From assembly GCA_037190965.1 (NCBI GenBank), contig JBBCKI010000019.1:32001-96000 (forward strand): a stretch of 64,000 nt of DNA, in the 5' to 3' direction. The translations under genes were made by a program, and so were the position numbers. The number at the start of each line of letters is the position of its first letter. Within the stretch, counting starts at the first letter, position 1. Positions 11,753 to 29,520 of this stretch are shown piece after piece. Below the pieces are notes generated by a model. That model searched no databases. It worked only from the letters and a program-made list of their open reading frames with translations, and was not told the origin of the DNA. This stretch comes from Chthoniobacteraceae bacterium (GTDB lineage Bacteria > Verrucomicrobiota > Verrucomicrobiia > Chthoniobacterales > Chthoniobacteraceae).

Positions 11753-12402
11753 ATGGCGAATATTTTCCCGCGTTGGAGTAACCTCCTTCCGCTCAAGCTT
11801 TTGATCTGCGCCGCTGTTTTGGGTGCTGGCTTGACGGGGGGGATCTGGTACTACTTCACCCCCAAGTACACCCGCGTCGGCTACATGCCGGTGCAACCGG
11901 TGCCTTTCTCCCACAAGATCCACGTCGGCCAGTTGGGGCTCGATTGCCGGTATTGCCACAGCTTCGTTGAGGTGGCGGCGCACTCGAACATCCCCAACAC
12001 CCAGACCTGCATGAACTGCCACTCGCAGGTGCAGAAGGAAAACCCGAAGCTCAAGCCGGTTCATGACTCTTGGGCCACCGGGAAGCCGATCGACTGGGTG
12101 CAGATCCACAAAACGCCCGATTACGTCTACTTCAACCACTCCGTTCACGTGAATCGCGGGATCAGCTGCTACAGCTGCCACGGACCGGTCAACGAGATGG
12201 AGGTCGTCTATCACCGCGAACCGCTCAGCATGGCGTGGTGTCTGGACTGTCACCGCAATCCCGAAAACCACCTCAGACCACCCCAGGAGGTCTTCAACCT
12301 CAACTGGCAGCCACCTGCCGGAACGACCCAGAGGAATATTGGTCTGGAGTTGAAAGACAAGTGGAACGTGAACCCGCCTGAGAACTGCGCTGGCTGCCAT
12401 CG

Positions 12403-12406
<4 letters not shown>
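11753..12406 (+). CDS. actA: alternative complex III pentaheme cytochrome c ActA
   Basis: five CxxCH (CRYCH, CMNCH, CYSCH, CLDCH, CAGCH), PVQPVPFSHKIH, N-terminal TM. Confidence 0.93.
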
Positions 12407-15542
<3,136 letters not shown>

Positions 15543-15543
<1 letters not shown>

Positions 15544-17018
15544 TGGCTAACGGCTCCACAATTTCAGCTCCCGACGAGTACGAGCAGCAGAAAGCTGCCG
15601 TCACCCGGGTTCCACTGGTCACCAATGACCGGAACATCCCCTGGGTCACCCAGCATGTCTCCGACATCGTCGAATCCAGGACGCCCATCTGGTGGTGGGT
15701 GTCGATCTTCTTCACCAGCCTCGTCGCCGCGTTCGGTCTGTTCTGCATCGCTTACCAGATCTCCACTGGCGTCGGCGTCTGGGGTGAGAACCACCCGGTC
15801 GGTTGGGCTTGGGACATCACGAACTTCGTGTTCTGGATCGGTATCGGTCACGCCGGTACCCTCATTTCCGCGATTTTGTTCCTGACTCGTCAGAAATGGC
15901 GTACCTCCATTAACCGCGCCGCCGAGGCGATGACGATCTTTGCGGTCGTTTGCGCCGGTATTTTCCCCGGCATTCACGTCGGTCGCGTCTGGATGGCCTG
16001 GTATCTCGCGCCGCTGCCGAACGCGAACGCCATCTGGCCGAACTTCCGCAGCCCCCTCCTCTGGGACGTGTTTGCGGTCTCGACCTATTTCACGGTGTCT
16101 CTGTTGTTCTGGTACGTCGGTCTGGTTCCTGACCTCGCGACGCTCCGCGACCGGGCCAAGTCGAAGGTTTCCAAGTTCGCTTACGGGCTCTTCGCCCTCG
16201 GCTGGCGCGGCGGCAACCGTCAGTGGCGGCACTACGAGATGGCCTATCTGATCCTGGCCGGTATCTCGACCCCGCTGGTGCTTTCGGTGCACTCCGTCGT
16301 GTCGTTCGACTTCGCGACCTCCGTTCTCCCCGGCTGGCACGCCACCATCTTCCCGCCTTACTTCGTCGCGGGCGCCATTTTCGGCGGGTTTGCCATGGTG
16401 TTGACGATCCTTCTTCCCGCGCGGCTGCTCTATCCGCAGCTCAAGGACATGATCACCCCGCAGCACATCGACAAGATGTGCAAGATCATCCTCCTGACCG
16501 GCAGCATCGTCGGTTACGCCTACGCGATGGAGTTCTTCATGGCATGGTACGGGGCGAACCCTTACGAGATCTGGGTCTTCCTCCGCAACCGCGTGGCGGA
16601 TCCCTACGTGTTCGGTCCGCTTTTCAACGTGCCTCCGGCTCCCTACTGGTGGGCCTACTGGGCCATGATCGGGTGCAACGTGCTTGCCCCGCAGGTCTTC
16701 TGGTTCAAGAAAAACCGCCACAACCTGATTCTCGTTTTCATCATCGTCAACCTGGTCAACGCGGGAATGTGGTTCGAGCGTTTCGTGATCATCGTCACCT
16801 CACTGCACCGCGACTTCCTCCCTTCCTCGTGGGGGATGTTCCACCCGACCTGGGCCGAGATCGGCCTCTTCGTGGGCACCTTCGGGATCTTCCTGACTCT
16901 GTTCCTTCTGTTCATGCGCTTCCTGCCGATGGTCACCATCTTCGAAGTGAAGACGGTATTGCCTGAGGCGGACCCGCACCATCACCCCAACACGCATAAA
17001 GGGGAGGTTTCACACTAA
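15543..17018 (+). CDS. actC: alternative complex III quinol-binding subunit ActC (NrfD/PsrC)
   Basis: [52 protein letters not shown]. Confidence 0.96.
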
Positions 17019-17563
17019 TGGCTGAGCATCGAAAAGTTTACGGTATCGCGGCGGAATTCGAGAGTTCCGCAGACCTCATGCACGCTGCCGAGAAGGTGCG
17101 CGACGCAGGGTTCAAACGCTGGGACGTCCACTCGCCCTTCCCGATCCACGGGATGGACGCCGCGATGGGGCTTGGAAAGTCATGGTTGAGCGCTCTCGTT
17201 TTTTGCGGCGGCGTCACAGGCCTGATTACCGCAGCGCTCCTGCAGTTCATTCCTTCGTCGATCATCTACCCGATGATCGTTCACGGAAAGCCGTATGACT
17301 TTATGACGGTCCCGGCGTTCTTCCCGATCATGTTCGAGTTGACGATTCTTCTCTCCGCTGCGGCTTGTATCTCCGGCCTCTGCGTGTTCACTCAACTGCC
17401 GAAGTGGTATCACCCGATGTTCAACTGGGATCGCTTCAACCGCGTGACCGATAACGGGTTCTTCCTCGTCATCGAATCCCGCGATCCGAAATTCTCCGAA
17501 TCAAAAACCCGCCAGTTCCTCGACGAACTCGGGGGATCGCATGTCACCCTGGTGCATGATTAA
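17018..17563 (+). CDS. actD: alternative complex III subunit ActD (DUF3341)
   Basis: DVHSPFPIHGMD, FELTIL, position after actC. Confidence 0.92.
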   Translation: MAEHRKVYGIAAEFESSADLMHAAEKVRDAGFKRWDVHSPFPIHGMDAAMGLGKSWLSALVFCGGVTGLITAALLQFIPSSIIYPMIVHGKPYDFMTVPAFFPIMFELTILLSAAACISGLCVFTQLPKWYHPMFNWDRFNRVTDNGFFLVIESRDPKFSESKTRQFLDELGGSHVTLVHD

Positions 17564-17590: not shown

Positions 17591-18277
17591 ATGCTCAGAT
17601 ATTTCTTTATCAGTTTTACTCTGGCCGTCATCGCAGTGATGGCGATCGCCGGGTTCCGGGGCGAAAAGAGCCGCAAGGCTCCGATCGAGATCTTCCCCGA
17701 CATGGATCGGCAGCCGCGCTATAACGCGCAGCACAAGAGCGACTTCTATGCCGACGGGCGCGCAGCCCGGCAGCATGTGGAAGGTACCGTGCCGCAAGGT
17801 TTTGTTCAGCCAGGGCTGTACTCCACGACCCAGGGAAACAACGCCCGTAAGCTGACGGGGCCGGCGGGATTCGGAAACTTCCCGACTTACGCCGACACCG
17901 GCAAGATCGGCGAAGTTTGGGGCGATGGGATTCCGCTTCCTGAGTTGAACGTTGCCGTTCTTGAACGCGGCCGCGAACGTTACAACATCAGCTGCGCCGT
18001 TTGTCACGGCGAAGTGGGCGATGGCAACGGGGTCGTCTCCAAGTACGGGTTCGGCGGCATCGCCAACCTCCAGGAGGCCCGGTTCCGCACGATGGCCGAC
18101 GGCCATATCTTCCAGACCATCACCCATGGTAAAGGCAACATGGGAGCTTACGGCTCGAACATCACCGTTGAAGACCGTTGGGCAATCATCGCCTACATTC
18201 GCGCGCTGCAGAAGAGCCAGAACGCCAGCATCAACGACGTCCCCGCTCAAATTCTTACAGATTTGGAAAAGCAATGA
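17591..18277 (+). CDS. actE: alternative complex III monoheme cytochrome c ActE
   Basis: DMDRQP, FYADGR, CAVCH, MGAY...DRWAIIAYIRALQ. Confidence 0.9.
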   Translation: MLRYFFISFTLAVIAVMAIAGFRGEKSRKAPIEIFPDMDRQPRYNAQHKSDFYADGRAARQHVEGTVPQGFVQPGLYSTTQGNNARKLTGPAGFGNFPTYADTGKIGEVWGDGIPLPELNVAVLERGRERYNISCAVCHGEVGDGNGVVSKYGFGGIANLQEARFRTMADGHIFQTITHGKGNMGAYGSNITVEDRWAIIAYIRALQKSQNASINDVPAQILTDLEKQ

Positions 18278-19488
18278 GTGATCATTCTCACACACCGGAA
18301 CTTAAGTCCGACTTTTTTGACGGCAGGAAGGCGAACTCCCTCGCGGCCATTTTTGGCGGCGTAGGCGTGGCGGCCCTGATCATCTCGTTGTTTCTCGGGC
18401 TCTACACCGGGGAGGATCTGAGCTTCCGGCAACTCTCCTTTTCATGGCTGTTTGCGGTTGTCTATTTCTTCGCCATTGCTTGCGGTGCGCTGTTCTGGAC
18501 CTTCGTCCACTACGCCACCGATGCAGAGTGGTCGGTTGTCGTTCGCCGTCAGTTGGAGAATCTCGGAACGGTGATGCCGGTCCTCTGTGCGTTCTTCTTC
18601 GCGGGGATCATCTTCTTTGCGCCCTATCTCTTCAAGTGGTGGACCATCCCGCCAGGGGCCGACGAGCTTCTCGACAAGAAAATCGCCTACCTGAACCCGT
18701 CGTTCTTCCTTGGCCGCGCGGTGTTCTACTTCGTCGCTCTCAGTCTGCTCGGAATCTTTATCCGGCGGAACTCGATTAAACAGGACATCGATGGGCACCC
18801 CGCTTACACGGTCCGCAATCGCGTGCTCTCCTTCATCGGGATTCCCGCCGTCGGTCTTTCGCTGACCTTTGCGGCAGTGGACTGGCTCATGAGCCTGGAC
18901 TTCCACTGGTTTTCCACCATGTGGGGTGTCTACATCTTCGCCGGTGGCGTCGGGGGCGCAATGGGAACGCTCGTCCTTCTTGTGACGTGGCTCCGGTCCA
19001 ACGGGCACCTCAAAGGGGTGACCATTGAGCACTACCACATCATGGGCAAGCTGATGCTCGCCTTCTGCGTCTTCTGGGCTTACATCGGCTACAGCCAGTA
19101 TATGCTCATCTGGTACGCGAACATGCCGGAGGAAACGGTTTACTTCATCCGCCGGAATACTGAAACGTGGTGGTACCTGAGCTTGGCTCTCGTGATCTTC
19201 CGCTTTTTCCTTCCTTTCCCTGTTCTCCTCTTTCAGGCGACCAAGAAGAATCCAAAATGGCTCTGCCTCGTCGCGGCGTGGCTCCTCATCATGCAGGCCC
19301 TCGATCTCTACATCGTCATCATGCCGATGTTGCATGTGAAGGGTGTTGATTTCACCTTCCTCGACGTGACTTGCTTCGTGGCTGTAGGCGGCATCGTGGC
19401 GGCCTACTTCCTCTGGAGACTTCCCAAAACCAATTTGTTCCCGGCTCGCGATCCGCGTCTCCCGGAATCCCTCCGTCTTACCAATTAG
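18274..19488 (+). CDS. actF: alternative complex III membrane subunit ActF
   Basis: DWLMSLDFHWFSTMWG, YSQYMLIWYANMPEE; ATG overlaps actE stop. Confidence 0.92.
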   Translation: MSDHSHTPELKSDFFDGRKANSLAAIFGGVGVAALIISLFLGLYTGEDLSFRQLSFSWLFAVVYFFAIACGALFWTFVHYATDAEWSVVVRRQLENLGTVMPVLCAFFFAGIIFFAPYLFKWWTIPPGADELLDKKIAYLNPSFFLGRAVFYFVALSLLGIFIRRNSIKQDIDGHPAYTVRNRVLSFIGIPAVGLSLTFAAVDWLMSLDFHWFSTMWGVYIFAGGVGGAMGTLVLLVTWLRSNGHLKGVTIEHYHIMGKLMLAFCVFWAYIGYSQYMLIWYANMPEETVYFIRRNTETWWYLSLALVIFRFFLPFPVLLFQATKKNPKWLCLVAAWLLIMQALDLYIVIMPMLHVKGVDFTFLDVTCFVAVGGIVAAYFLWRLPKTNLFPARDPRLPESLRLTN

Positions 19489-19489
19489 T

Positions 19490-19990
19490 ATGGCTCAACC
19501 AAGAACAGCGCGTATCGGCCTCGGCTTTATCTGGGGTATATTGGGCTTCTGCCTGCTCGGACTGCTTGTCGCGATCTTCCGCGGTGGGCCTACCCCCGGT
19601 GACGCTTACGAAGATCAACGTGCCGCAGAGCGGACCAAGCGGCTTGCCGAGCTGCGCGAGGAAGCGCATGCGAAGCTTACGAAGTATGCGGTCGATAAGG
19701 AGAAGAAGACCGCACAGATCCCGATCGAGCGCGCCATGGAGCTGACGCTCAAGGATCTGGTTGCCAAGGGAATTTCCCCCAGTGCCGAGAAGGCCGAGAT
19801 CGTCCCGAGCCTCTTGGTTCCTCCGTATCTGAAGCCAGCCGTCGCAACCGAAGCTGCTCCGCAAGAAGCAGCGCCCGCTGCTTCGGCGGCTCCCATCCCT
19901 GCCGCTGCCGAACCGACGCCCGCCAGCCAGCCCAGCCCGGCTGCCGAGCCCCAAACTCCCGCCACCCCGGCTGCTCCCAGCGAGAACTAG
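19490..19990 (+). CDS. single-TM protein, probable ActG, with Pro/Ala-rich tail
   Basis: one TM helix, IPIERAMEL motif, position directly after actF. Confidence 0.55.
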   Translation: MAQPRTARIGLGFIWGILGFCLLGLLVAIFRGGPTPGDAYEDQRAAERTKRLAELREEAHAKLTKYAVDKEKKTAQIPIERAMELTLKDLVAKGISPSAEKAEIVPSLLVPPYLKPAVATEAAPQEAAPAASAAPIPAAAEPTPASQPSPAAEPQTPATPAAPSEN

Positions 19991-20001
19991 AATTTTTTTC
20001 A

Positions 20002-21519
20002 ATGAGCGTGCCTTCCACAGTTACTCGACAGTCCTCCGGGAGAGAAGTGATCCCCGGCGAACTCGAACAGGTTGAACGGGCGTCAATCGATGCCTCCGCG
20101 CGGGTCCCCGTGCTAACCTTTTATGCCTCAGCGGTATTCTGGCTTCTGGTCCAGACCGTTCTCGGCGTGATCAACGCCGTCAAGGTCCAGTGGCCGGAGT
20201 TTCTCGACGGCTGCGCCTGGCTGACTTTTGGCCGACTCTTTCCGGTCCAGAACAGTCTGATGATTTACGGCTGGGCGAGCCTTGCCGGTATCGGCACCGC
20301 CCTCTGGATTCTTGCGCGCCTTTGCCGCGTTGCCCTTCCGAAGCCGGCGATGCTGCTCACGGGAACGATGCTCTGGAACGTGGCGCTGATCGCGGGCTCC
20401 CTCGAGATCCTCGCCGGGAACGGACGCGGGTTGATTTATCTGGAGTTTCCGAGGTACGTCTTCGGGCTTCTCTTCGTCGCCTATAGTATAGTGGCGGTGT
20501 GGGGAGTAATCCTGTTTTTCAATCGCCGCCCCGGGCATATCTACATTTCCGCGTGGTATCTCATCGCGGCGCTCTTCTGGTTCCCTTGGCTCGTCGGTGG
20601 CACGAACCTTCTGCTCGGCTCCGGGCTTCCCGGTGCGGCCGGTGTTCAGGGGGTGATGCAGGCGATCGTCAATGCGTGGTTCGCACAGAACGTGATCAAT
20701 CTCTGGTTGAGCGCGATTGGCTTGGGTGCCATTTACTACCTTGTTCCGAAGGTGGTTGGCCGCCCGATTCATAGTTATCACCTTGCTTCTGTCGGTTTTT
20801 GGTCGTTCGCGATCTTCTCGGTCTGGACCGGCGGCCAGCGCCTTGCCGGTGGCCCTGTTCCTGCCTGGGTCATCACCGTGGGGATCGTCGCGGCGATCCT
20901 GATGCTCATCCCCGTCGCCACCGTGACGGCCAATTACTTCATGACGATGAAGGGCAAGTTCAATCTTGTCTATCACAGCCCGACCATCCGGTTCGTGTTC
21001 TTCGGGGCCGTGGCTTACACGCTCGCCAATCTCGTGTTGGTGGCGGGTTCCTTCCGCAGCCTCAGCAACATCACCCAGTACACCTGGTTTACGGTGGGCA
21101 GCGATTACCTCTTCATCTACGGCTTCTACTCGATGGTGATGTTCGGGGCGATGTACTACATTATCCCGCGTCTGGTCGGCTGCGAATGGCTCTCCGCCAG
21201 TTTCATCAAGCTCCACTTCTGGGGCACCGCTTACGGATGGGGAATGACCATCGCCATGCTGCTGCTGGCCGGTTACTCACAAGGGCAGATGCTGGCGAAC
21301 GTGCATGAGGTTCATGCGACCAACGCCGGGGCTGACTTCATGCTTTCGGTATCCGCAGCGTTGCCGTTCCTCCGTGGACGCAGCATCGCCCAGATCCTAC
21401 TCTGCGTCGGCCAACTCTTCTTTGCCCTTAACTTCCTGCTGATGTTGCTGCGTCTTGGCCGTCCAAGCGGAGCCCAGCCCACCCTGTTCGCACCCATCCA
21501 CGAAGGAGCCAAGTCGTGA
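20002..21519 (+). CDS. CcoN-like (cbb3 subunit I fold) protein lacking all heme/CuB ligand histidines
   Basis: aligns by eye to CcoN motifs (FGRL, HIYISAWY, YYLVPK..GRP, AMYYIIPRL, LHFW) but ligand positions read Q83, Q229, Q279/R280, S367, Y369. Confidence 0.88.
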   Translation: MSVPSTVTRQSSGREVIPGELEQVERASIDASARVPVLTFYASAVFWLLVQTVLGVINAVKVQWPEFLDGCAWLTFGRLFPVQNSLMIYGWASLAGIGTALWILARLCRVALPKPAMLLTGTMLWNVALIAGSLEILAGNGRGLIYLEFPRYVFGLLFVAYSIVAVWGVILFFNRRPGHIYISAWYLIAALFWFPWLVGGTNLLLGSGLPGAAGVQGVMQAIVNAWFAQNVINLWLSAIGLGAIYYLVPKVVGRPIHSYHLASVGFWSFAIFSVWTGGQRLAGGPVPAWVITVGIVAAILMLIPVATVTANYFMTMKGKFNLVYHSPTIRFVFFGAVAYTLANLVLVAGSFRSLSNITQYTWFTVGSDYLFIYGFYSMVMFGAMYYIIPRLVGCEWLSASFIKLHFWGTAYGWGMTIAMLLLAGYSQGQMLANVHEVHATNAGADFMLSVSAALPFLRGRSIAQILLCVGQLFFALNFLLMLLRLGRPSGAQPTLFAPIHEGAKS

Positions 21520-22187
21520 AGCCTACGCCACTTCTTTTTGCCGGAATCTTTGCTTCGTTTGCCGCCGCCTGGCTTGGTCTGATCGTCGCGTCTGACACGC
21601 AGATCGGTAACCTCCAGCCGCAGGTTGACGAAGAGAACGCCGATGTTTACCCGATCAACGTAGCCGGACTCGCCGAGCAAGGCCGCCGCGTCTACATTGC
21701 CAATGGTTGCAACTATTGCCACACGCAATTGGTTCGCGAACCCCATGCCGGCCCGGACATCGCGCGGGAATGGGGCACCCGCCGCACGGTTGCCCGGGAC
21801 TACATTTACGAGAGCGGCGCTGTCATCGGGTTCATGCGAAACGGTCCGGATCTCGCCAACATCGGCGCTCCCAAGGCTGAGAATTCAAGACGGGGCTACG
21901 TCAATGATCCGAAGTGGCAGTACGCGCATCTTTACAATCCGCGCGCGACCACCCCGGCTTCAAACATGCCCGCCTATCGCTATCTCTTCGAGAAGAGGAA
22001 GATTAGTGGCGAGCGCTCCGAGAACGCGCTGAACCTGACGGAAGCCGACGGAGTTGAGGCCGGTTACGAAATGGTCCCCAACAATGACGCCAAGGCGCTC
22101 GTCGCCTACCTCCTCTCTTTGGATAGGAGCCATCCCTTAAAAGAAGTCAAAGGAGCCGCGCCTGCCCCCGCCGCTGCTGCCAAGTGA
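21516..22187 (+). CDS. ccoO: CcoO-like membrane-anchored monoheme cytochrome c
   Basis: GRRVYIANGCNYCHTQLVR, GPDLANIG, HLYNPR...SNMPAY (axial Met). Confidence 0.85.
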   Translation: MKPTPLLFAGIFASFAAAWLGLIVASDTQIGNLQPQVDEENADVYPINVAGLAEQGRRVYIANGCNYCHTQLVREPHAGPDIAREWGTRRTVARDYIYESGAVIGFMRNGPDLANIGAPKAENSRRGYVNDPKWQYAHLYNPRATTPASNMPAYRYLFEKRKISGERSENALNLTEADGVEAGYEMVPNNDAKALVAYLLSLDRSHPLKEVKGAAPAPAAAAK

Positions 22188-22906
22188 GCACGAAGAGCCC
22201 AGATCCTTTAATGCCCATGCAACCAGGAGAAGACGAAATTGATTATCGCGAAACGGCCGATGTGACGCGTGTCCACGGCGCAGTGAAGCGCGAGCACAAG
22301 GAACCGGAGGCGGGCATCGTCCCGGTGCCGGTCTGGTGGTTTGCCGTGGTCATCCTTGTGACCTTCGGAGCCGCCTTCTACTTCGGACAGTTCGGCGGCG
22401 GCTTCAGTGGGGAAGTCTTCAATGAACGCGAAGGTTCGCTGGCTGCCGGCGCGAAAGAAGGCGGTGCTGCCGCCGGGGCGGAAGCTGCCAAAGAGCAATC
22501 CCTCGCCGAGATCGGCAAAAAGGTTTTCAACCAGAACTGCGCTTCCTGCCATCAGGCTAACGGGCTGGGGCTCCCCGGCACTTATCCTCCCTTGGCGGCA
22601 TCGCACTGGGTCAGTGGTTCCACCAAGCGTCTGACGGCGCTCGTCCTTAAGGGGATGCAGGGGCCCGTTGTGATCGAAGGGAAGAGTTACAATGGAGCGA
22701 TGCCCGCCTGGGGCCGCGACTTCAACGACAAGAAGATGGCGGCCGTCCTGAGCTACATTCGCTCGGCCTGGGGCAACACGGCGGGAGAGATCACTCCCGA
22801 ACAGGTCGCCGTGGTTCGGGCAGAGTTCGCCAGCCGGACAGAGTCATTCGCTCCGCCGGAGTTGGAAGCCATTACGGAGGATATCCCCGCGGTACCCGCC
22901 CCTTAA
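22184..22906 (+). CDS. membrane-anchored monoheme cytochrome c (in the CcoP position)
   Basis: PVPVWW before TM, CASCH, YPPLA, GAMPAWG. Confidence 0.88.
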   Translation: MSTKSPDPLMPMQPGEDEIDYRETADVTRVHGAVKREHKEPEAGIVPVPVWWFAVVILVTFGAAFYFGQFGGGFSGEVFNEREGSLAAGAKEGGAAAGAEAAKEQSLAEIGKKVFNQNCASCHQANGLGLPGTYPPLAASHWVSGSTKRLTALVLKGMQGPVVIEGKSYNGAMPAWGRDFNDKKMAAVLSYIRSAWGNTAGEITPEQVAVVRAEFASRTESFAPPELEAITEDIPAVPAP

Positions 22907-22909
22907 ATC

Positions 22910-22937
22910 TTGCCATAATTAGTAGAATTTATATAAT
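22910..22937 (+). promoter_or_regulatory. putative internal sigma70 promoter for the aa3 oxidase genes
   Basis: TTGCCA-N16-TATAAT in an AT-rich patch. Confidence 0.65.
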
Positions 22938-23108: not shown

Positions 23109-24920
23109 ATGGAAATCTCAACGCACTCTTCGCACTCCGGTGCGGGACATGATGATGGTCATCACGACCATCACGAGCTCGGCTTTTGGAGCAAATATGT
23201 CTTCTCCACCGATCACAAGGTGATCGGTATCCAGTACGGGCTCTCCGGGCTTCTTTTCCTGTTCCTCGGCTTCTGCTTGATGATGCTGATGCGATGGCAG
23301 CTTGCCTACCCAGGCCAGGCACTTCCGTATTTTGGGGCCGTTCTTGCCAAGGTGTTTCCTCAAGAAATGCCCAACGGCATCATGACGCCGGACTTCTATA
23401 ACTCCCTCGGCGCCATGCACGGGACGATCATGGTCTTCCTCGGCATCGTTCCTGTCTCCTTCGCGGCGTTCGGTAACTATGTCGTCCCGCTCCAGATCGG
23501 CGCACCCGACATGGCGTTCCCCAAGCTGAACATGGCAAGCTTCTGGGTATTCTTTATCGGCGGCGTCATCATGCTCATCAGCTTCTTCGTTCCCGGCGGA
23601 GCGGCGAAGAGCGGCTGGACCTCCTATCCTCCTCTTGCCAACATTGCGGACACCGGCCCCGCGTTCCACCACATCTGGAACGGCCAGACGCTCTGGTTGA
23701 TGGGCATGGTCTTCCTGATCACCTCCTCGCTGCTTGGCTCGGTGAACATCATTACCACGGTGATCCAGCTTCGCGCTCCCGGGTTGACCTGGATGCGCCT
23801 CCCGTTCTTCACCTGGGCGATCCTGGTGACCTCCTATATTCTCCTCCTCGCGTTTCCTCCGCTTGAAGCCGCCGGCATCATGCAGTTGATGGATCGTGTC
23901 GCAGGTACCTCGTTCTTCAGTCCGAACGGCTTGATCGTCAGCAGCCTCGGTGGCCAGCTCGACATCAGCGGTGGCGGCAGCCCGCTTCTGTGGCAGCACC
24001 TCTTCTGGTTCCTCGCGCACCCGGAAGTTTACGTTCTTATTCTTCCCGCGCTAGGAATTGTGGCCGAAGTTATCGCCAACAACACCCGCAAGCCGCTCTG
24101 GGGCTACAAGGCGATGGTCTTCTCCGCCCTTTTCCTCGGGTTCCTCTCGTTCCTTGTCTGGGCGCACCACATGTATCTCACGGGCATGGGTACCAAGGTG
24201 AGCGCTTTCTTCCAGACGACCACCATCATGATTTCGGTGCCGTCGGTCATTATTCTCACGGCGCTTCTGATCTCGCTCTGGGGAGGGTCCATCCGTTTCA
24301 CCACGCCGATGCTCTTCGCGACGGCGTTCCTCCCGATGTTCGGCATCGGCGGTCTGACGGGTCTGCCCCTGGCGTTCAACTCGCTGGACGCCTACCTCCA
24401 CGACACCTACTACATCATCGGTCACTTTCACTATATCGTCGCGCCCGGTACGATCTTCGGCATCTTCGCAGGGGTCTACTACTGGTATCCCAAGATGACG
24501 GGCCGCACGATGAGCGACACGCTCGGTAAGCTCCACTTCTGGGGTTCGCTCATTACGATCAACGGCATCTTCTTCCCGATGTTCCTCCAGGGTATGGCGG
24601 GGATGCACCGCCGCTGGTATGACGGCGGCCATGTTTACGAACAGATCAGCGGGCCGATGCTCCACTGGAACAGCTTCATGTCCTGGTCGGCATGGTTGCT
24701 TGGCATTGTTCAGATCTTCTTCATCATCAACGTCTTCTGGAGCATCCGGAATGGCCGCAAGGTGAACACGAATCCCTGGGATGCGACGACCCTCGACTGG
24801 AGCACTCCGTCGCCCCCTCCTCACGGCAACTTCGACAAGCCGGTTACGGTTTATCGTGGGCCGTATGAATACAGCGTCCCCGGTGCCGCTAAGGATTTCT
24901 CTCCCCAGGCAGAAGCATAA
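23109..24920 (+). CDS. ctaD: cytochrome c oxidase subunit I, A-family (aa3)
   Basis: STDHK, MHGTIM, DMAFPKLN, GWTSYPPL, AHPEVY, WAHHM, HDTYYIIGHFHY, GMHRR; K-channel Lys absent (see findings). Confidence 0.96.
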   Translation: MEISTHSSHSGAGHDDGHHDHHELGFWSKYVFSTDHKVIGIQYGLSGLLFLFLGFCLMMLMRWQLAYPGQALPYFGAVLAKVFPQEMPNGIMTPDFYNSLGAMHGTIMVFLGIVPVSFAAFGNYVVPLQIGAPDMAFPKLNMASFWVFFIGGVIMLISFFVPGGAAKSGWTSYPPLANIADTGPAFHHIWNGQTLWLMGMVFLITSSLLGSVNIITTVIQLRAPGLTWMRLPFFTWAILVTSYILLLAFPPLEAAGIMQLMDRVAGTSFFSPNGLIVSSLGGQLDISGGGSPLLWQHLFWFLAHPEVYVLILPALGIVAEVIANNTRKPLWGYKAMVFSALFLGFLSFLVWAHHMYLTGMGTKVSAFFQTTTIMISVPSVIILTALLISLWGGSIRFTTPMLFATAFLPMFGIGGLTGLPLAFNSLDAYLHDTYYIIGHFHYIVAPGTIFGIFAGVYYWYPKMTGRTMSDTLGKLHFWGSLITINGIFFPMFLQGMAGMHRRWYDGGHVYEQISGPMLHWNSFMSWSAWLLGIVQIFFIINVFWSIRNGRKVNTNPWDATTLDWSTPSPPPHGNFDKPVTVYRGPYEYSVPGAAKDFSPQAEA

Positions 24921-24931
24921 TTTTCTCTACA

Positions 24932-25807
24932 ATGGAAATTCCATATACAGTCAAGCCGAGGCCGGACACGGGTCTCTGGAATGCGAAGATCGGCATCTGG
25001 CTCTTCCTCGCCTCGGAAGTGATGCTCTTCGGCGGTCTCTTTTCGGCATACATTTTCCTGCGTCTCGGCGCGGAACCGGGTTATTGGCCCAAGGGTCTTT
25101 TGAACGTTCCGGTCGGCACCATCAATACGGCCATCCTGATCGCCTCTTCGGTCAGCGTGGTTTTTGCCTGGGCGGCGCTCAAGATGCGGAACTTCAAGCG
25201 GTATCGCCTCTGCATGATGTTCACCCTGTTGTGCGGGGTGGTCTTCCTCGGGGTGAAGCTCGGTTACGAGTGGCCCGCCAAGTACCATCATTTCGGCGCT
25301 TTCATCAAACCGGAAGCCCGTGCCAAGTACGAAGAGTTCCTGGGCAACGAGCACCTGGCTGCGAAGGGGTTGCACCCCCGTGTCGAAATTAGCGGACACC
25401 TGGAGAACCACGACGCCCTGCATGACAAGGAGATCAAGGAATACCACATCCGGCTGGATGCGGTGAACGCGGACCCGACCTCTCCCGCCAACGATCACCC
25501 GCACTTCTGGCCTCGCCCGATGTCGGACAAGGTGGCGCACGTCGCGAAGGAAGACGTCCAGTGGGCAAGCATGTTCCTGCCCAAACACAGCACTTACTTT
25601 GCCGTATACTACACGATCACCGGTCTGCACGGGTTGCACGTCTTGGGCGGTCTGGTCATGTTTGCGTACTTCCTGCTTCCGGTCAGCACGCGCCTTTACC
25701 AGAAGGATCCCGATCATCTGGCGAACCGGATCGAAGTGGTGGGACTTTTCTGGCACTTCGTCGACCTCGTCTGGATTTTCGTTTTCCCGCTGTTCTATCT
25801 CCTCTAG
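24932..25807 (+). CDS. ctaE: cytochrome c oxidase subunit III with internal soluble insertion
   Basis: WLFLASEVMLFGGLF, TGLHGLHV, FWHFVDLVWIFVFPLFY. Confidence 0.93.
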   Translation: MEIPYTVKPRPDTGLWNAKIGIWLFLASEVMLFGGLFSAYIFLRLGAEPGYWPKGLLNVPVGTINTAILIASSVSVVFAWAALKMRNFKRYRLCMMFTLLCGVVFLGVKLGYEWPAKYHHFGAFIKPEARAKYEEFLGNEHLAAKGLHPRVEISGHLENHDALHDKEIKEYHIRLDAVNADPTSPANDHPHFWPRPMSDKVAHVAKEDVQWASMFLPKHSTYFAVYYTITGLHGLHVLGGLVMFAYFLLPVSTRLYQKDPDHLANRIEVVGLFWHFVDLVWIFVFPLFYLL

Positions 25808-25826
25808 CCGATTTTAATCCATCTCT

Positions 25827-26180
25827 ATGAGCGATCCTCATCAACACGGCTCTCCCGCTACCGCGGCCGATCACCCGGTTCCGCATGACGCCGCGCATTT
25901 CCACGACCATTCCAAGCTTTACCTCGGGGTTGGGGCAGCCCTGCTGGTCCTGACGGCGGCCACGGTCGGACTGTCGTATGTTCATTTCGGCTCCGAAGAA
26001 ATGAACATTCTGATCGGCATGCTCCTCGCGACCTTCAAGGCCTCGCTGGTGGCGTTGATTTTCATGCACCTCAAGGAAGAAAAGATGACCATTTACCAGT
26101 TCATGCTCGCGACGATGGTGTTCGTCACCGGGCTGTTCCTTTTGACGCTCCTGGCGTTCAAAGATCACATCGTCCTCTGA
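25827..26180 (+). CDS. ctaF: cytochrome c oxidase subunit IV (prokaryotic)
   Basis: KASLVALIFMHLK motif, three TM helices. Confidence 0.88.
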   Translation: MSDPHQHGSPATAADHPVPHDAAHFHDHSKLYLGVGAALLVLTAATVGLSYVHFGSEEMNILIGMLLATFKASLVALIFMHLKEEKMTIYQFMLATMVFVTGLFLLTLLAFKDHIVL

Positions 26181-26225
26181 TCTCACCCACGAATCACGGA
26201 ACCAAACCAAAGAAGAACCCATTTT

Positions 26226-26429
26226 ATGTCACTTCGCGGAGTTCATATCCTCTTCATCCTCCTCAGTGTCCTGCTCTCGTTCCTGCTGGCAGCTTTCGAG
26301 CTGACAGTATACCGGCAGGGTCACGCGTTGGTTGACGGGGTGGTCGCTTCGCTCTCGGCTGCAATTGGGTTGGGTCTCGCGGCTTACGGAATCTGGTTCA
26401 TCCGGAAATCGGGGAAATCCACCGTATGA
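26226..26429 (+). CDS. small two-TM protein in the oxidase operon
   Basis: 67 aa, two hydrophobic helices, stop overlaps the next ATG. Confidence 0.7.
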   Translation: MSLRGVHILFILLSVLLSFLLAAFELTVYRQGHALVDGVVASLSAAIGLGLAAYGIWFIRKSGKSTV

Positions 26430-26701
26430 ACCGCCCTCTGAACATCACGCTTCCTGCCCTTCTGATTTCCATATCGATGAAGGGGAACGCCCTTGCCTGC
26501 GCGGTATGCACCGGCTCGGCCGATGCTCCTATCGCCCCGGCGATGAACGCGTCGATGGTGTTTCTTCTCGCTGCCATCGCGGTTGTCGGCAGCATGTTTT
26601 TCGGTTTTTTAATCTATCTTGCCCGGCGGGACGGCCTGCCTGCAAACGTTAATCAAGAACTCTCCGGGGAGATGGAATCCCCTATCTCTCAACAAAGCTG
26701 A
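26426..26701 (+). CDS. small membrane protein with CxxC (CAVC)
   Basis: signal-like N-terminus, ALA-CAVC, one TM; translationally coupled on both sides. Confidence 0.7.
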   Translation: MNRPLNITLPALLISISMKGNALACAVCTGSADAPIAPAMNASMVFLLAAIAVVGSMFFGFLIYLARRDGLPANVNQELSGEMESPISQQS

Positions 26702-26702
26702 T

Positions 26703-27518
26703 ATGTTGAATAAATTGTTAGGAATGCCCCTGAATGCTTCCGAGCACGGGTTTCAAGTCGACCAGATGCTCGAGTTTGTGCACTGGATCATGCTGGTGCT
26801 CTTCGTCGGGTGGTCGACATTCTTCATCTTTACTTTGATCCGCTTCCACAAGTCGCGGAACCCGAAGGCGGATTACCACGGCGTAAAATCCAAGGCTTCC
26901 ACTCACATCGAGTTCATGGTGGTGCTGGTGGAGTCGGTCTTTCTGCTCGGGTTCGGTATTCCCCTGTGGGGCAAGCGAGTTAATGGACCAAAGCCGGAAG
27001 GAGGCGACGTGGAACGTGTCCGCGTGGTCGCCGAGCAGTACAAGTGGAACTTTCATTATCCCGGCGCAGACGGGGTGATCGGCCGCCGGAAGACTGAACT
27101 CGTGAGTGCTTCGAACCCTGTAGGGCTCGACTACACGGATCCTGCCGCGAAGGACGATATTGTGACCGCCAACGAGATGCACCTCCCGGTCAACAAAGAT
27201 GTCATCCTGGAGATCAGCTCCAAGGACGTCATTCATAGCCTTTCGCTCCAGTTCATGCGCATCGGCCAGGACGCGACGCCCGGCCTGGTGAGCCCCATCT
27301 GGTTCAAGCCGGTCAGGACCGGCGAGTTCGAGATCATCTGCGGCCAGCTTTGCGGTTACGGTCACTACCTCATGCGCGGAAACATGGTCATTGATTCCGC
27401 CGAGGATTATCAGGCCTGGTTGAAGGAGAAGGCGGCAAATGCCGGCGCTCCTGCTGCACCGGCTGCCGGCGCCGCAACTCCTGCTCCTGCCGCCCCTCCC
27501 GCAGGGGCCGCGCACTAG
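26703..27518 (+). CDS. ctaC: cytochrome c oxidase subunit II (CuA, no fused cytochrome c)
   Basis: two TM, AEQYKWNFHY, SKDVIHS, CGQLCGYGHYLM CuA motif. Confidence 0.93.
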   Translation: MLNKLLGMPLNASEHGFQVDQMLEFVHWIMLVLFVGWSTFFIFTLIRFHKSRNPKADYHGVKSKASTHIEFMVVLVESVFLLGFGIPLWGKRVNGPKPEGGDVERVRVVAEQYKWNFHYPGADGVIGRRKTELVSASNPVGLDYTDPAAKDDIVTANEMHLPVNKDVILEISSKDVIHSLSLQFMRIGQDATPGLVSPIWFKPVRTGEFEIICGQLCGYGHYLMRGNMVIDSAEDYQAWLKEKAANAGAPAAPAAGAATPAPAAPPAGAAH

Positions 27519-27619
27519 CGGCGGCGTCCACGATGTGGGGCGCCATAGTCGCCCCATCTTCCCACCAGGGGGGAGGCACCGCTTGCTTTCCGCGAAACGT
27601 GTTGAATTATTAGATCTCC

Positions 27620-28588
27620 ATGCAACCGGCTAAACTCTGGCTATCCCGCTACGCAAAGTTCGTCGTCGTCTTCACACTGTTTCTGATTTCAGTGGGTGGC
27701 ACGGTGACGACCAAGAAGGCGGGGCTGGCAGTGCCGGATTGGCCCACCAGCTTCGGGTACAACATGTTCACTCTCCCGTTCCACTTTTGGGAGGGGGACG
27801 CTCTTTTGGAGCATTCGCATCGCCTGGTTGGCTCCGTGATGGGGATGCTGGTCATTGGCCTTTTGATCTGGACGGCCTGCGTGGAACGACGCTCGTGGGT
27901 CAAGCAGCTCACCTGGGTCGCGTTGGTCATGGTGATTGTGCAAGGGATCATGGGCGGGCTGCGCGTCACGGAGCTCTCCATTGCCTGGGCCATCGTCCAC
28001 GGCTGCACGGCTCAAGCCTTTCTTTGTCTTTTGCTCCTGATCGCGGTTGCGCTCTCGCCGGAATGGGACCGTCCTCTGGCTGCTTCGGTGAGCCCGGCGC
28101 GCGTGGCGAATTGGCGGCACTGGGCCTGGATCGTCGTCGGTGCCGTTTTTCTTCAGTTGTTTTTGGGGGCCTTCATGAGGCACATCGATGCCGGGCTGGC
28201 GATTCCGACCTTCCCTCTCACCCCCGAAGGGACCTTCATGCCGACCGTGCATAACAAGCACGTCGATATTCACTTCGCCCATCGTTTCTGGGCTCTGGTG
28301 GTGACGGTGCTTGTTGGAATCCTGACCACCAAGGTGCTCCGGTCCGCATGGGCGGAAAGGCGCTTCCGTCGACCCGCATTGGGCCTCATCGTGCTTCTGA
28401 TCGTTCAGATTGCACTTGGAGCCTCGATTATCTGGACCCAACGCGCTTCCCATCCGACGACTCTCCACGTGGTGAACGGTGCCGTGGTGCTGGCATTGAG
28501 CTTTCTTCTGGGCATTCGGGCGAACCGTTTTTCCAAGGCCCATAACGATCAACCTTTTTCGGCCTCCCCCACGCCGCTTCAAGCATGA
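27620..28588 (+). CDS. ctaA: heme A synthase (CtaA/COX15)
   Basis: AGLAVPDWP, LEHSHR, QGIMGG, VHG, FAHR, LHV. Confidence 0.9.
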   Translation: MQPAKLWLSRYAKFVVVFTLFLISVGGTVTTKKAGLAVPDWPTSFGYNMFTLPFHFWEGDALLEHSHRLVGSVMGMLVIGLLIWTACVERRSWVKQLTWVALVMVIVQGIMGGLRVTELSIAWAIVHGCTAQAFLCLLLLIAVALSPEWDRPLAASVSPARVANWRHWAWIVVGAVFLQLFLGAFMRHIDAGLAIPTFPLTPEGTFMPTVHNKHVDIHFAHRFWALVVTVLVGILTTKVLRSAWAERRFRRPALGLIVLLIVQIALGASIIWTQRASHPTTLHVVNGAVVLALSFLLGIRANRFSKAHNDQPFSASPTPLQA

Positions 28589-29520
28589 ACGAAATCACGC
28601 AATTAGAGGGGATGGAGGGTAATCAGGCCCAGCGGCAGGGCTCCATCGAGGAGGCTGGCCTCGCCGGTTTCGTCGGAGACGTCATGCTTCTGGTCAAGGC
28701 GCGTCTGACGCTGCTGGTGGTTATCACCACGTTTGTCGGTTTTTGCATGGCGAGCCGTGGCTCCCTCGACTGGGCGCAACTTGCCCATACCGTGGTCGGC
28801 ACCGCCCTGGTGGCCGCCGCCGCCGCCGCTTTCAATCAGGTGTTGGAGATCAACGTTGACCGCCTCATGGAGCGGACCCGTCAGCGTCCGATCGCCGCGG
28901 GCCGGATGACCAAGAAGACGGCAATCCTGCTCGGTTCGATCATGGCCATCGGGGGCTTTGCCCAGCTCGCCATCGCCACCACGTGGGTCGCCGCTTATCT
29001 CTCGGCGGCTTCATTCCTGATCTACATTCTTTTCTACACTCCGATGAAGCGTCACACGGCGCTTTGCGTGACGATCGGCGCGGTTTCCGGCGCCATTCCG
29101 CCGGTGATCGGCTGGACCGCGGTGGATGGCTCTTTTGGCATCGGCGCGTGGGTGCTGTTCGGGATTCTCTTTGCCTGGCAGATGCCCCACTTTCTTGCGA
29201 TTGCCTGGATGTACCGGGACGAGTATTCGCAAGCCGGGTTTGTCATGCTGCCCAGGAAGGATTTTTCGGGGGCGTGGACAGCGGCTCAGGCGCTTCTTTA
29301 CTCTGTGGCTCTCACGGCCTGCACGCTGGTTCCGTTCTTTACCGGAGAAGGGGGAGCTCTTTATCTCACGGGAGCGCTCGTGTTCGATCTTTTGATGGTG
29401 GCCTGTTCGATCTACTTCATGGTGCAGCGGACACGGCAGGCGGCGCGGCTTCTCTTTTTCTCATCGATCGTGTACCTTCCCGGGCTGCTGTTGTGCCTGA
29501 TGGTTTTTACCAAACCTTGA
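28585..29520 (+). CDS. ctaB: protoheme IX farnesyltransferase (heme O synthase)
   Basis: DRLMERTRQRP, YTPMKR, GAIPPVIGW, WQMPHFLAIA. Confidence 0.95.
   Translation: MNEITQLEGMEGNQAQRQGSIEEAGLAGFVGDVMLLVKARLTLLVVITTFVGFCMASRGSLDWAQLAHTVVGTALVAAAAAAFNQVLEINVDRLMERTRQRPIAAGRMTKKTAILLGSIMAIGGFAQLAIATTWVAAYLSAASFLIYILFYTPMKRHTALCVTIGAVSGAIPPVIGWTAVDGSFGIGAWVLFGILFAWQMPHFLAIAWMYRDEYSQAGFVMLPRKDFSGAWTAAQALLYSVALTACTLVPFFTGEGGALYLTGALVFDLLMVACSIYFMVQRTRQAARLLFFSSIVYLPGLLLCLMVFTKP

Follow-up and report, generated by a model that had tools for sequence, protein, structure and literature searches.

A CcoN homologue lacking redox-metal ligands in ACIII operons of Verrucomicrobiae: a putative scaffold for cytochromes c

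Introduction

What can the catalytic subunit of a haem-copper oxidase still do once it has lost every residue that binds its metals? The six His ligands count as an almost universal feature of the haem-copper superfamily, and a ccoN gene is taken to indicate respiration at low oxygen, an inference that ligand-less copies would affect. A first-pass annotation of the window, the whole 64,000-nucleotide stretch of Chthoniobacteraceae DNA analysed here, pointed to such a gene: an intact ORF with the CcoN pattern, coupled to ccoO, in which all six His ligands and the cross-link Tyr (the seven residues below) appeared to be replaced. Its product is called CcoN* in this work.

Results

ccoN* lies between ACIII genes and an aa3 oxidase

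The gene order in the window is actA-F, an actG-like gene, ccoN*, ccoO, a ccoP-like gene, coxA, coxC, coxD, coxB, ctaA, ctaB and sco. The features of the locus are as follows.

11753-12406, + strand: actA, five CxxCH motifs (Pfam, NCBIfam)
12403-15543, + strand: actB (Pfam, NCBIfam)
15543-17018, + strand: actC (Pfam, NCBIfam)
17018-17563, + strand: actD (Pfam, NCBIfam)
17591-18277, + strand: actE, one CxxCH motif (Pfam, NCBIfam)
18274-19488, + strand: actF, from its position and its similarity to the counterpart in a second act cluster; no family match
19490-19990, + strand: ActG-like protein with a single helix and a Pro/Ala-rich tail; no Pfam match, position kept, 31 aligned copies
20002-21519, + strand: CcoN*, a 12-helix protein of CcoN fold that lacks the cross-link Tyr and all ligands of haem b, haem b3 and CuB
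21516-22187, + strand: CcoO-like monohaem cytochrome c, CNYCH and axial Met151 kept (PF02433)
22184-22906, + strand: CcoP-like membrane-anchored monohaem cytochrome c, CASCH and Met173 (PF00034, PF13442, partial TIGR00782)
22910-22937, + strand: sigma-70-like promoter, TTGCCA-16-TATAAT, 11/12, a consensus match only
23112-29520, + strand: A-type oxidase genes coxA, coxC, coxD and coxB, then ctaA and ctaB, all intact

ActG is a name that we assume for the 19490-19990 protein. The ccoN* frame is intact over 505 aa and begins 11 bp past the end of the actG-like gene; ccoO overlaps by 4 bp both the ccoN* stop and the downstream ccoP-like gene, in line with the coupling first proposed. The promoter match sits between the act-ccoNOP block and the aa3 genes, in a region with 2 sigma-70-like sites versus 4.8 expected in shuffled sequences. 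Window CoxB has the CuA motif and no haem c domain, and the aa3 genes are the likely electron sink. The product of a small ORF before coxB (26426-26701) has a signal-like stretch followed by a CAVC motif, together with one hydrophobic helix; in Methylacidiphilum fumariolicum SolV, coxB is likewise preceded by a comparable small gene (MFUM_v2_0391), and our guess is that the window ORF is copper-related.

Elsewhere in the same genome, contig C23 carries a canonical CcoN-CcoO fusion with all seven residues, through which microaerobic capacity is plausible, and contig C66 carries a second ACIII-caa3 operon. The CoxA encoded at G000:C66:32215-33999 (L001) reads FWFYSPPAVY, in which a CuB His is changed to Pro by one base; this may reflect a mistake in the assembly or a genuine inactivation.

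CcoN* keeps the fold and none of the ligands

We take the ligand roles, and the P. stutzeri numbering of R57, E122, T215, S240, H337 and CcoO S102, as given; T215, Y223, S240, H243 and Y317 of P. stutzeri CcoN are presumably proton-channel residues, with T215 and S240 belonging to the K-channel. The closest solved relative of CcoN* is P. stutzeri CcoN (3mk7_A; phmmer, E 1.1e-39, query 37-478, about 25% identity). In this alignment, which has no gaps at the ligand motifs, the low-spin haem b ligands H60 and H347 are replaced by Q83 and Y369, the CuB ligands H207, H257 and H258 by Q229, Q279 and R280, the haem b3 ligand H345 by S367, and the cross-link Tyr of helix VII, Y251, by S273. The same seven pairs were obtained when CcoN* was put into a multiple alignment with the canonical CcoN from C23 of its own genome (G000:C23), so that the replacement of all six His and the Tyr was confirmed by both. 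The eight His of CcoN* (179, 257, 260, 325, 405, 435, 438 and 500) all lie outside the ligand columns. R57 and E122 are also absent, and T215, Y223, S240, H243 and Y317 correspond to S237, Y245, A262, G265 and Y339, while the non-ligand motifs HIYISAWY, YYLVPK, YYIIPRL and LHFW are present, as first reported.

An AlphaFold model from a 148-sequence alignment (pLDDT 92.3, pTM 0.92) retrieved cbb3 structures at the top of a Foldseek search (PDB 3MK7, TM 0.84/0.91, E 4.5e-23), which also bears out the CcoN assignment of the ORF. Matches in the ESM Atlas were only clusters named cytochrome c oxidase subunit I, and databases name the relatives of CcoN* "cbb3-type cytochrome c oxidase subunit I", the automated label that the first-pass annotation had anticipated. 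TIGR00780 scored CcoN* at 172.9 bits, below its cut-off of 583.15; intact ACIII-linked CcoN proteins, at 203-232 bits, likewise fall below it, so this cut-off cannot tell intact from ligand-less copies. CcoN* is thus closest to the CcoN fold, yet it has none of the ligands, nor the Tyr, of a C-family oxidase; with no His at the six positions, it also lacks the haem His and non-haem metal site of a NO reductase or NOD. From these substitutions and established ligand chemistry, CcoN* is predicted to bind neither haem b, haem b3 nor CuB and to be unable to reduce O2, and taking it for a low-oxygen oxidase is probably wrong.

The subfamily exists in two states

CcoN* had matches in 34 of the 41 related genomes. 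Across 301 genomes sampled from the phylum, 73 Verrucomicrobiae genomes have a strong ActD match (below 1e-40), and 72 of these carry the divergent CcoN subfamily. From the matches in these two genome sets, eighty loci were hand-picked for spread: 73 ACIII-type, 2 stand-alone intact and 5 distant CcoN outgroups. Act genes lie upstream in 71 of the 73 ACIII-type loci, the remaining two being at contig ends; ccoO follows in 73/73 and a third cytochrome in 71/73. CcoN* fits this ACIII-linked subfamily by its act(A-G)-ccoN-ccoO-cytochrome c order and by its clade placement.

Counting the window, 33 of the 74 ACIII-type copies keep all seven residues and 41, forming two groups (n=28 and n=13), keep at most two His. 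The 149 closer homologues comprise 138 with three or fewer of the seven residues, ten with all seven and one truncated sequence. The best 150 representatives at 50% identity include 139 that cover all sites, with at most two residues in 132, three or four in 3 and seven in 4, counts that are biased by a profile built from ligand-less sequences. One lineage (2/41 loci; 8/138 rows of the first homologue set) keeps H60 and H347 and is a possible haem-b-only intermediate; its loci L069 and L092 have lost the binuclear-centre ligands, and L069 also keeps R57.

This lineage bears on the idea that CcoN* binds another cofactor or substrate (a quinone, a lipid or a single haem) with new redox chemistry, which we regard as very improbable. 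The lineage may retain a haem-b wire, and a few other His are conserved, H405 being present in 149/149. However, H405 is common to canonical CcoN, where it is a non-ligand, the window protein has neither H60 nor H347, the three CuB His are kept in no ligand-less set (0/41, 0/135, 0/138), and the replacement residues vary between lineages. A conserved replacement active site, considered as a candidate, was rejected, and the sensor role first suggested for CcoN* found no support, there being no conserved replacement at the former ligand sites.

Several variants were observed among these loci. The intact ACIII-linked copies (L074-L118) differ from canonical CcoN by a Gly at H243 (33/33) and an E323 that is not conserved; judged by sequence, this intact subfamily may represent a variant of C-type oxidase not yet characterised. 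In the window's genus, two genomes that each have a ligand-less ACIII copy also carry a second, stand-alone copy with the seven residues and ccoO and without act genes (L086, L087; G002:C3, G001:C26). P0199 is a natural ligand-less CcoN*-CcoO fusion of 706 aa (one sequence, one contig), and P0268 has a long Lys/Ala/Pro-rich C-terminal tail. Some ligand-less operons carry an additional cytochrome c domain, either immediately before ccoN* or in the form of a second monohaem gene downstream of the ccoP-like one; loci with extra cytochrome c domains are L071, L119, L126 and L071-L073, L078, L079, L081, L090. A degenerate act cluster with weak ActD and ActF was seen at L159 and L160 (G101, G125; family f20, genus g40), where no actA or actB match was found in the region and a dihaem protein of about 900 aa follows the act remnant; G101 gave no CcoN family match.

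Ligand-less copies are under purifying selection

By the Nei-Gojobori method, with the window compared to its nearest relative (81% identical, dS 1.04), the dN/dS of CcoN* is 0.116; its neighbours gave 0.154 (ccoO), 0.140 (ccoP-like), 0.102 (actC), 0.181 (actF) and 0.102 (coxA). All 11 ligand-less pairs fell at 0.07-0.24 and the 5 unsaturated of 7 intact pairs at 0.06-0.14, dS being near saturation in many pairs; the unsaturated ligand-less pair of SolV and Methylacidiphilum sp. Yel (dS 0.19) gave 0.16. Mean identity is 0.37 among ligand-less versus 0.60 among intact copies. From these comparisons, ligand-less CcoN appears to be under relaxed constraint and far from neutral. The expectation of a dN/dS well below 1 thus held, whereas that of a clade-wide His loss did not, intact same-position orthologues being found at 47-51% identity. 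The first-pass annotation had itself named recent decay, with intact homologues beside a neutrally evolving copy, as the opposing case: intact homologues do exist, but this copy is not neutral, and together with the ligand loss its dN/dS supports a protein that is non-catalytic and yet kept.

It is accordingly hard to credit that ccoN* is decaying, or that it encodes an active oxidase which only looks ligand-less because of misalignment. Such a reading could appeal to the intact orthologues (33/74), to the faster evolution of the ligand-less copies and to the canonical CcoNO in the same genome. It is largely refuted by full-length open frames across families with dN/dS near 0.1, by the ungapped motif alignment and confident CcoN fold, and by transcription in SolV.

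The ligands were lost more than once

The CcoN tree has 2-3 state changes, and on it a single clade of ligand-less copies is not rejected (p-AU 0.33); under a mixture model with the lost columns removed (40 rows), 2 changes were found. Neighbouring genes, for which rows missing a gene were excluded, tell otherwise: a single clade is rejected by the ActC+ActF tree (65 rows, 12 changes, p 1.6e-57) and by the CcoO+P-like tree (62 rows, 6 changes, p 5.6e-9), and a four-gene tree has 10 changes, with ligand-less operons branching among intact ones at its starred nodes. One clade-wide loss, which the CcoN tree alone would allow, was therefore set aside. The direction is taken as loss from an intact ancestor because the outgroups are intact and regain of seven residues is unlikely, and the intact same-position orthologues likewise argue that an ACIII-linked C-type oxidase subfamily, originally intact, lost its ligands repeatedly. 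As the CcoN tree has only 2 changes, the 6-12 of the neighbour trees may include swapping of ccoN* between operons. Taken together, the trees suggest that the ligands were lost at least twice and perhaps about ten times.

Residues of the electron and proton routes were lost with the ligands

R57, E122, T215, S240 and H337 are invariant in 33/33 intact copies, whereas the 41 ligand-less ones have scattered residues at these positions; at S240, the two ligand-less groups have Ala in 22/28 and 13/13. Five glycines that are shared by 32-33 of 33 intact copies persist in just 3-10 of 41 ligand-less copies, the others having larger residues there; of the 18 remaining conserved glycines, 17 are present in 28-41 of 41. 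Two of the five lie one helical turn from H207 and H345, and we infer that the five line cofactor pockets. By contrast, the haem c motifs stayed: CxxCH is kept in CcoO in 34/34 ligand-less operons, with the axial Met in 28/34, and CxxCH plus Met in the CcoP-like protein in 34/34. The CcoO face did not, as T106, M107 and T109, near-invariant in intact operons, remain in 4, 5 and 0 of 34, and the window CcoO has GFMRNGPD where intact relatives have GTMRTGPD. As the CcoO face and the CcoN residues are both lost with the haems c kept, the CcoO-to-CcoN route would have decayed from both sides. The alignments thus indicate that propionate, Ca and proton-channel residues and the CcoO face were lost along with the ligands.

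CcoN* might also have taken on an ion-conducting, coupling or regulatory role in the membrane, such as that of a gated proton path or a CcoO redox sensor, an explanation that we find quite unlikely. Arg or Lys occupies the former H257/H258 in 18/28 and 12/13 ligand-less copies and 0/33 intact ones, Y223 and Y317 are retained in the window copy, and cytoplasmic loop motifs such as PRL..EW.S are strongly conserved. Nevertheless, S240 and T215 of the K-channel mostly became non-polar, which looks like closing, the basic residue is present in just 45/132 of the more distant ligand-less representatives, and no signalling domain or regulator linked to CcoN* was found.

Methylacidiphilum as a test case

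M. fumariolicum SolV and strain Yel have the same operon, and their CcoN reads SESSHFV at the seven sites. A family search of the SolV genome turned up six genes for subunit I. Two are A-type and two ba3-like, one resembles NorB by motif, and the sixth is the ligand-less ccoN. The supplement of PMC10205796 gives the name CcoN to a single protein, MFUM_v2_0384, which is this ligand-less sequence. In a SolV methane reactor, ccoN, ccoO and the ccoP-like gene reached 36, 49 and 58 TPM and the act genes 40-85, against 264, 552 and 454 for coxA, coxC and coxB; the ccoN/O/P transcript level therefore matches the act genes, unlike aa3. In the family of SolV, 14 of 15 genomes have the gene, ligand-less in all and split across two contigs in one; the fifteenth is G078. 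A canonical CcoN was not found in Methylacidiphilum-family genomes, the next match reaching at most 48 bits versus 231-300 for other types.

In the passages available from PMC6688271, these genes next to ACIII are called a cbb3 oxidase with a very high affinity for O2, and those from PMC8498564 and PMC10205796 list cbb3 as one of three oxidase types; in the same passages, all three sources count the Methylacidiphilum gene as high-affinity cbb3 and tie it to low-O2 growth. A probably wrong low-oxygen inference, of which the first-pass annotation had warned, is thus found in print. Since the sole SolV CcoN is ligand-less, the published "cbb3 oxidase" of these methanotrophs is probably no oxidase, and with no other CcoN found in SolV, the ba3 oxidases are the more likely source of the high O2 affinity. 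An excerpt of PMC8170126 describes a methanotroph whose genome has ACIII but lacks cbb3.

A scaffold for the cytochromes

We consider it probable, though well short of assured, that CcoN* is a cofactor-free putative scaffold that holds CcoO and the CcoP-like cytochrome as an electron outlet of ACIII to aa3. CcoN* would be the relic catalytic subunit of an ACIII-linked C-type oxidase, retained to anchor and stabilise CcoO and the CcoP-like cytochrome, which together would form a membrane-bound outlet of ACIII. Electrons could pass from menaquinol through ActC, ActB, ActA and ActE to the CcoP-like and CcoO haems on CcoN*, and from these to CuA of aa3 or to other periplasmic acceptors. To judge from the substitutions, larger side chains would occupy the empty cofactor pockets, and the proton channel would be closed. 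The scaffold is favoured because the CcoO and CcoP-like haem motifs are retained and the link to ACIII is tight. In model cbb3 oxidases, the stability of CcoO depends on CcoN.

The adjacent coxB has no haem c domain in 27/27 loci. Among ACIII loci of other classes, 7/9 have caa3, and none of these 7 has ccoNOP; ACIII-oxidase pairs employ an extra cytochrome c domain (PMC5928083, excerpted text). Nonetheless, caa3 with its own haem c is encoded elsewhere in five ligand-less genomes examined (G225, G272, G136, G228 and G098), so a missing cytochrome c domain is not the whole reason for keeping CcoN*. An A-type oxidase is present in 68/74 genomes, whichever the ligand state. The idea that the loss tracks adjacent aa3 genes was discarded, intact and ligand-less copies both occurring with and without them. 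Counting against the scaffold, 470 residues are costly for two self-anchored proteins, and the module is dispensable in at least one genome: G078, the lone exception among the 73 ActD-positive genomes, lacks N, O and P together and runs ACIII with aa3 and ba3. Its ACIII operon (L158, G078:C1) lacks ccoN, ccoO, the ccoP-like gene and coxA, with the actG-like gene directly before coxC, and its coxA stands alone on another contig (L170, G078:C31).

CcoN* might instead be a structural ACIII subunit or an ACIII-aa3 spacer that keeps the docking site of the intact oxidase, the cytochromes being secondary. Gene linkage and SolV transcript level go with ACIII, helices 1-3 and 11 are less relaxed (identity ratio 0.69-0.74) than helices 4-10 (0.43-0.64), and in the Rhodothermus marinus complex oxidase subunit I/III adjoins ActC (PMC5928083, in excerpt). 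This reading is nevertheless unlikely in our judgement, since ACIII functions without CcoN* in other lineages and in G078, and N, O and P are kept or lost as one.

More broadly, Verrucomicrobiae may repeatedly, perhaps about ten times, have made an oxidase catalytic subunit a cofactor-free integral part of an enlarged ACIII, giving an ACIII-CcoN*OP-aa3 chain in which one oxidase, itself dead, connects quinol oxidation to another; we advance this wider proposal tentatively, with slightly more doubt than belief.

Comparison with known systems

A description of this ligand loss was not found in a literature search with thin coverage of subscription journals. A widespread, selected and transcribed ligand-free member of the superfamily would be a respiratory pseudo-enzyme and, if our reading is true, one with living intact orthologues and partial-loss intermediates to compare. 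As intact, half-lost and fully lost forms occur in one operon type, function and origin are testable in cultured strains.

CcoN* resembles P. stutzeri cbb3 CcoNOP (PDB 3MK7/5DJQ) in fold, N-O-P gene order and the haem c motifs of O and P. It differs in lacking the His ligands, the cross-link Tyr, R57 and E122, in its altered K-channel, in a P-like subunit with one haem and in the position of the block inside an act operon. That operon position is shared with the Verrucomicrobia ACIII-linked C-type oxidase genes (Refojo et al. 2010, as cited in an excerpt of PMC8498564). Against the oxidase reading in that excerpt, 41/74 copies are ligand-less, including those of the window, SolV and Yel; judged by their seven residues, the other 33 belong to lineages in which the published reading can hold.

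As in the R. marinus ACIII-caa3 and Flavobacterium johnsoniae ACIII-aa3 supercomplexes, A-type oxidase genes come after those of ACIII. The proposed bridge between ActE and CuA is a haem c tethered to the membrane, which in these two organisms belongs to a domain of subunit II or of ActA (PMC5928083, here and below as far as excerpted). In the window, by comparison, ActA has five haem motifs, CoxB has none, and the three genes of a relic oxidase stand between. The haem-copper fold with changed ligands also recalls gNOR, NOD and nNOR, of which gNOR is named in PMC11214002 as the first member with one active-site His replaced, changes of a single ligand being presented there as the extreme. Whereas these enzymes, in the portion of PMC11214002 available, swap one ligand and stay catalytic, CcoN* has swapped six His and the Tyr.
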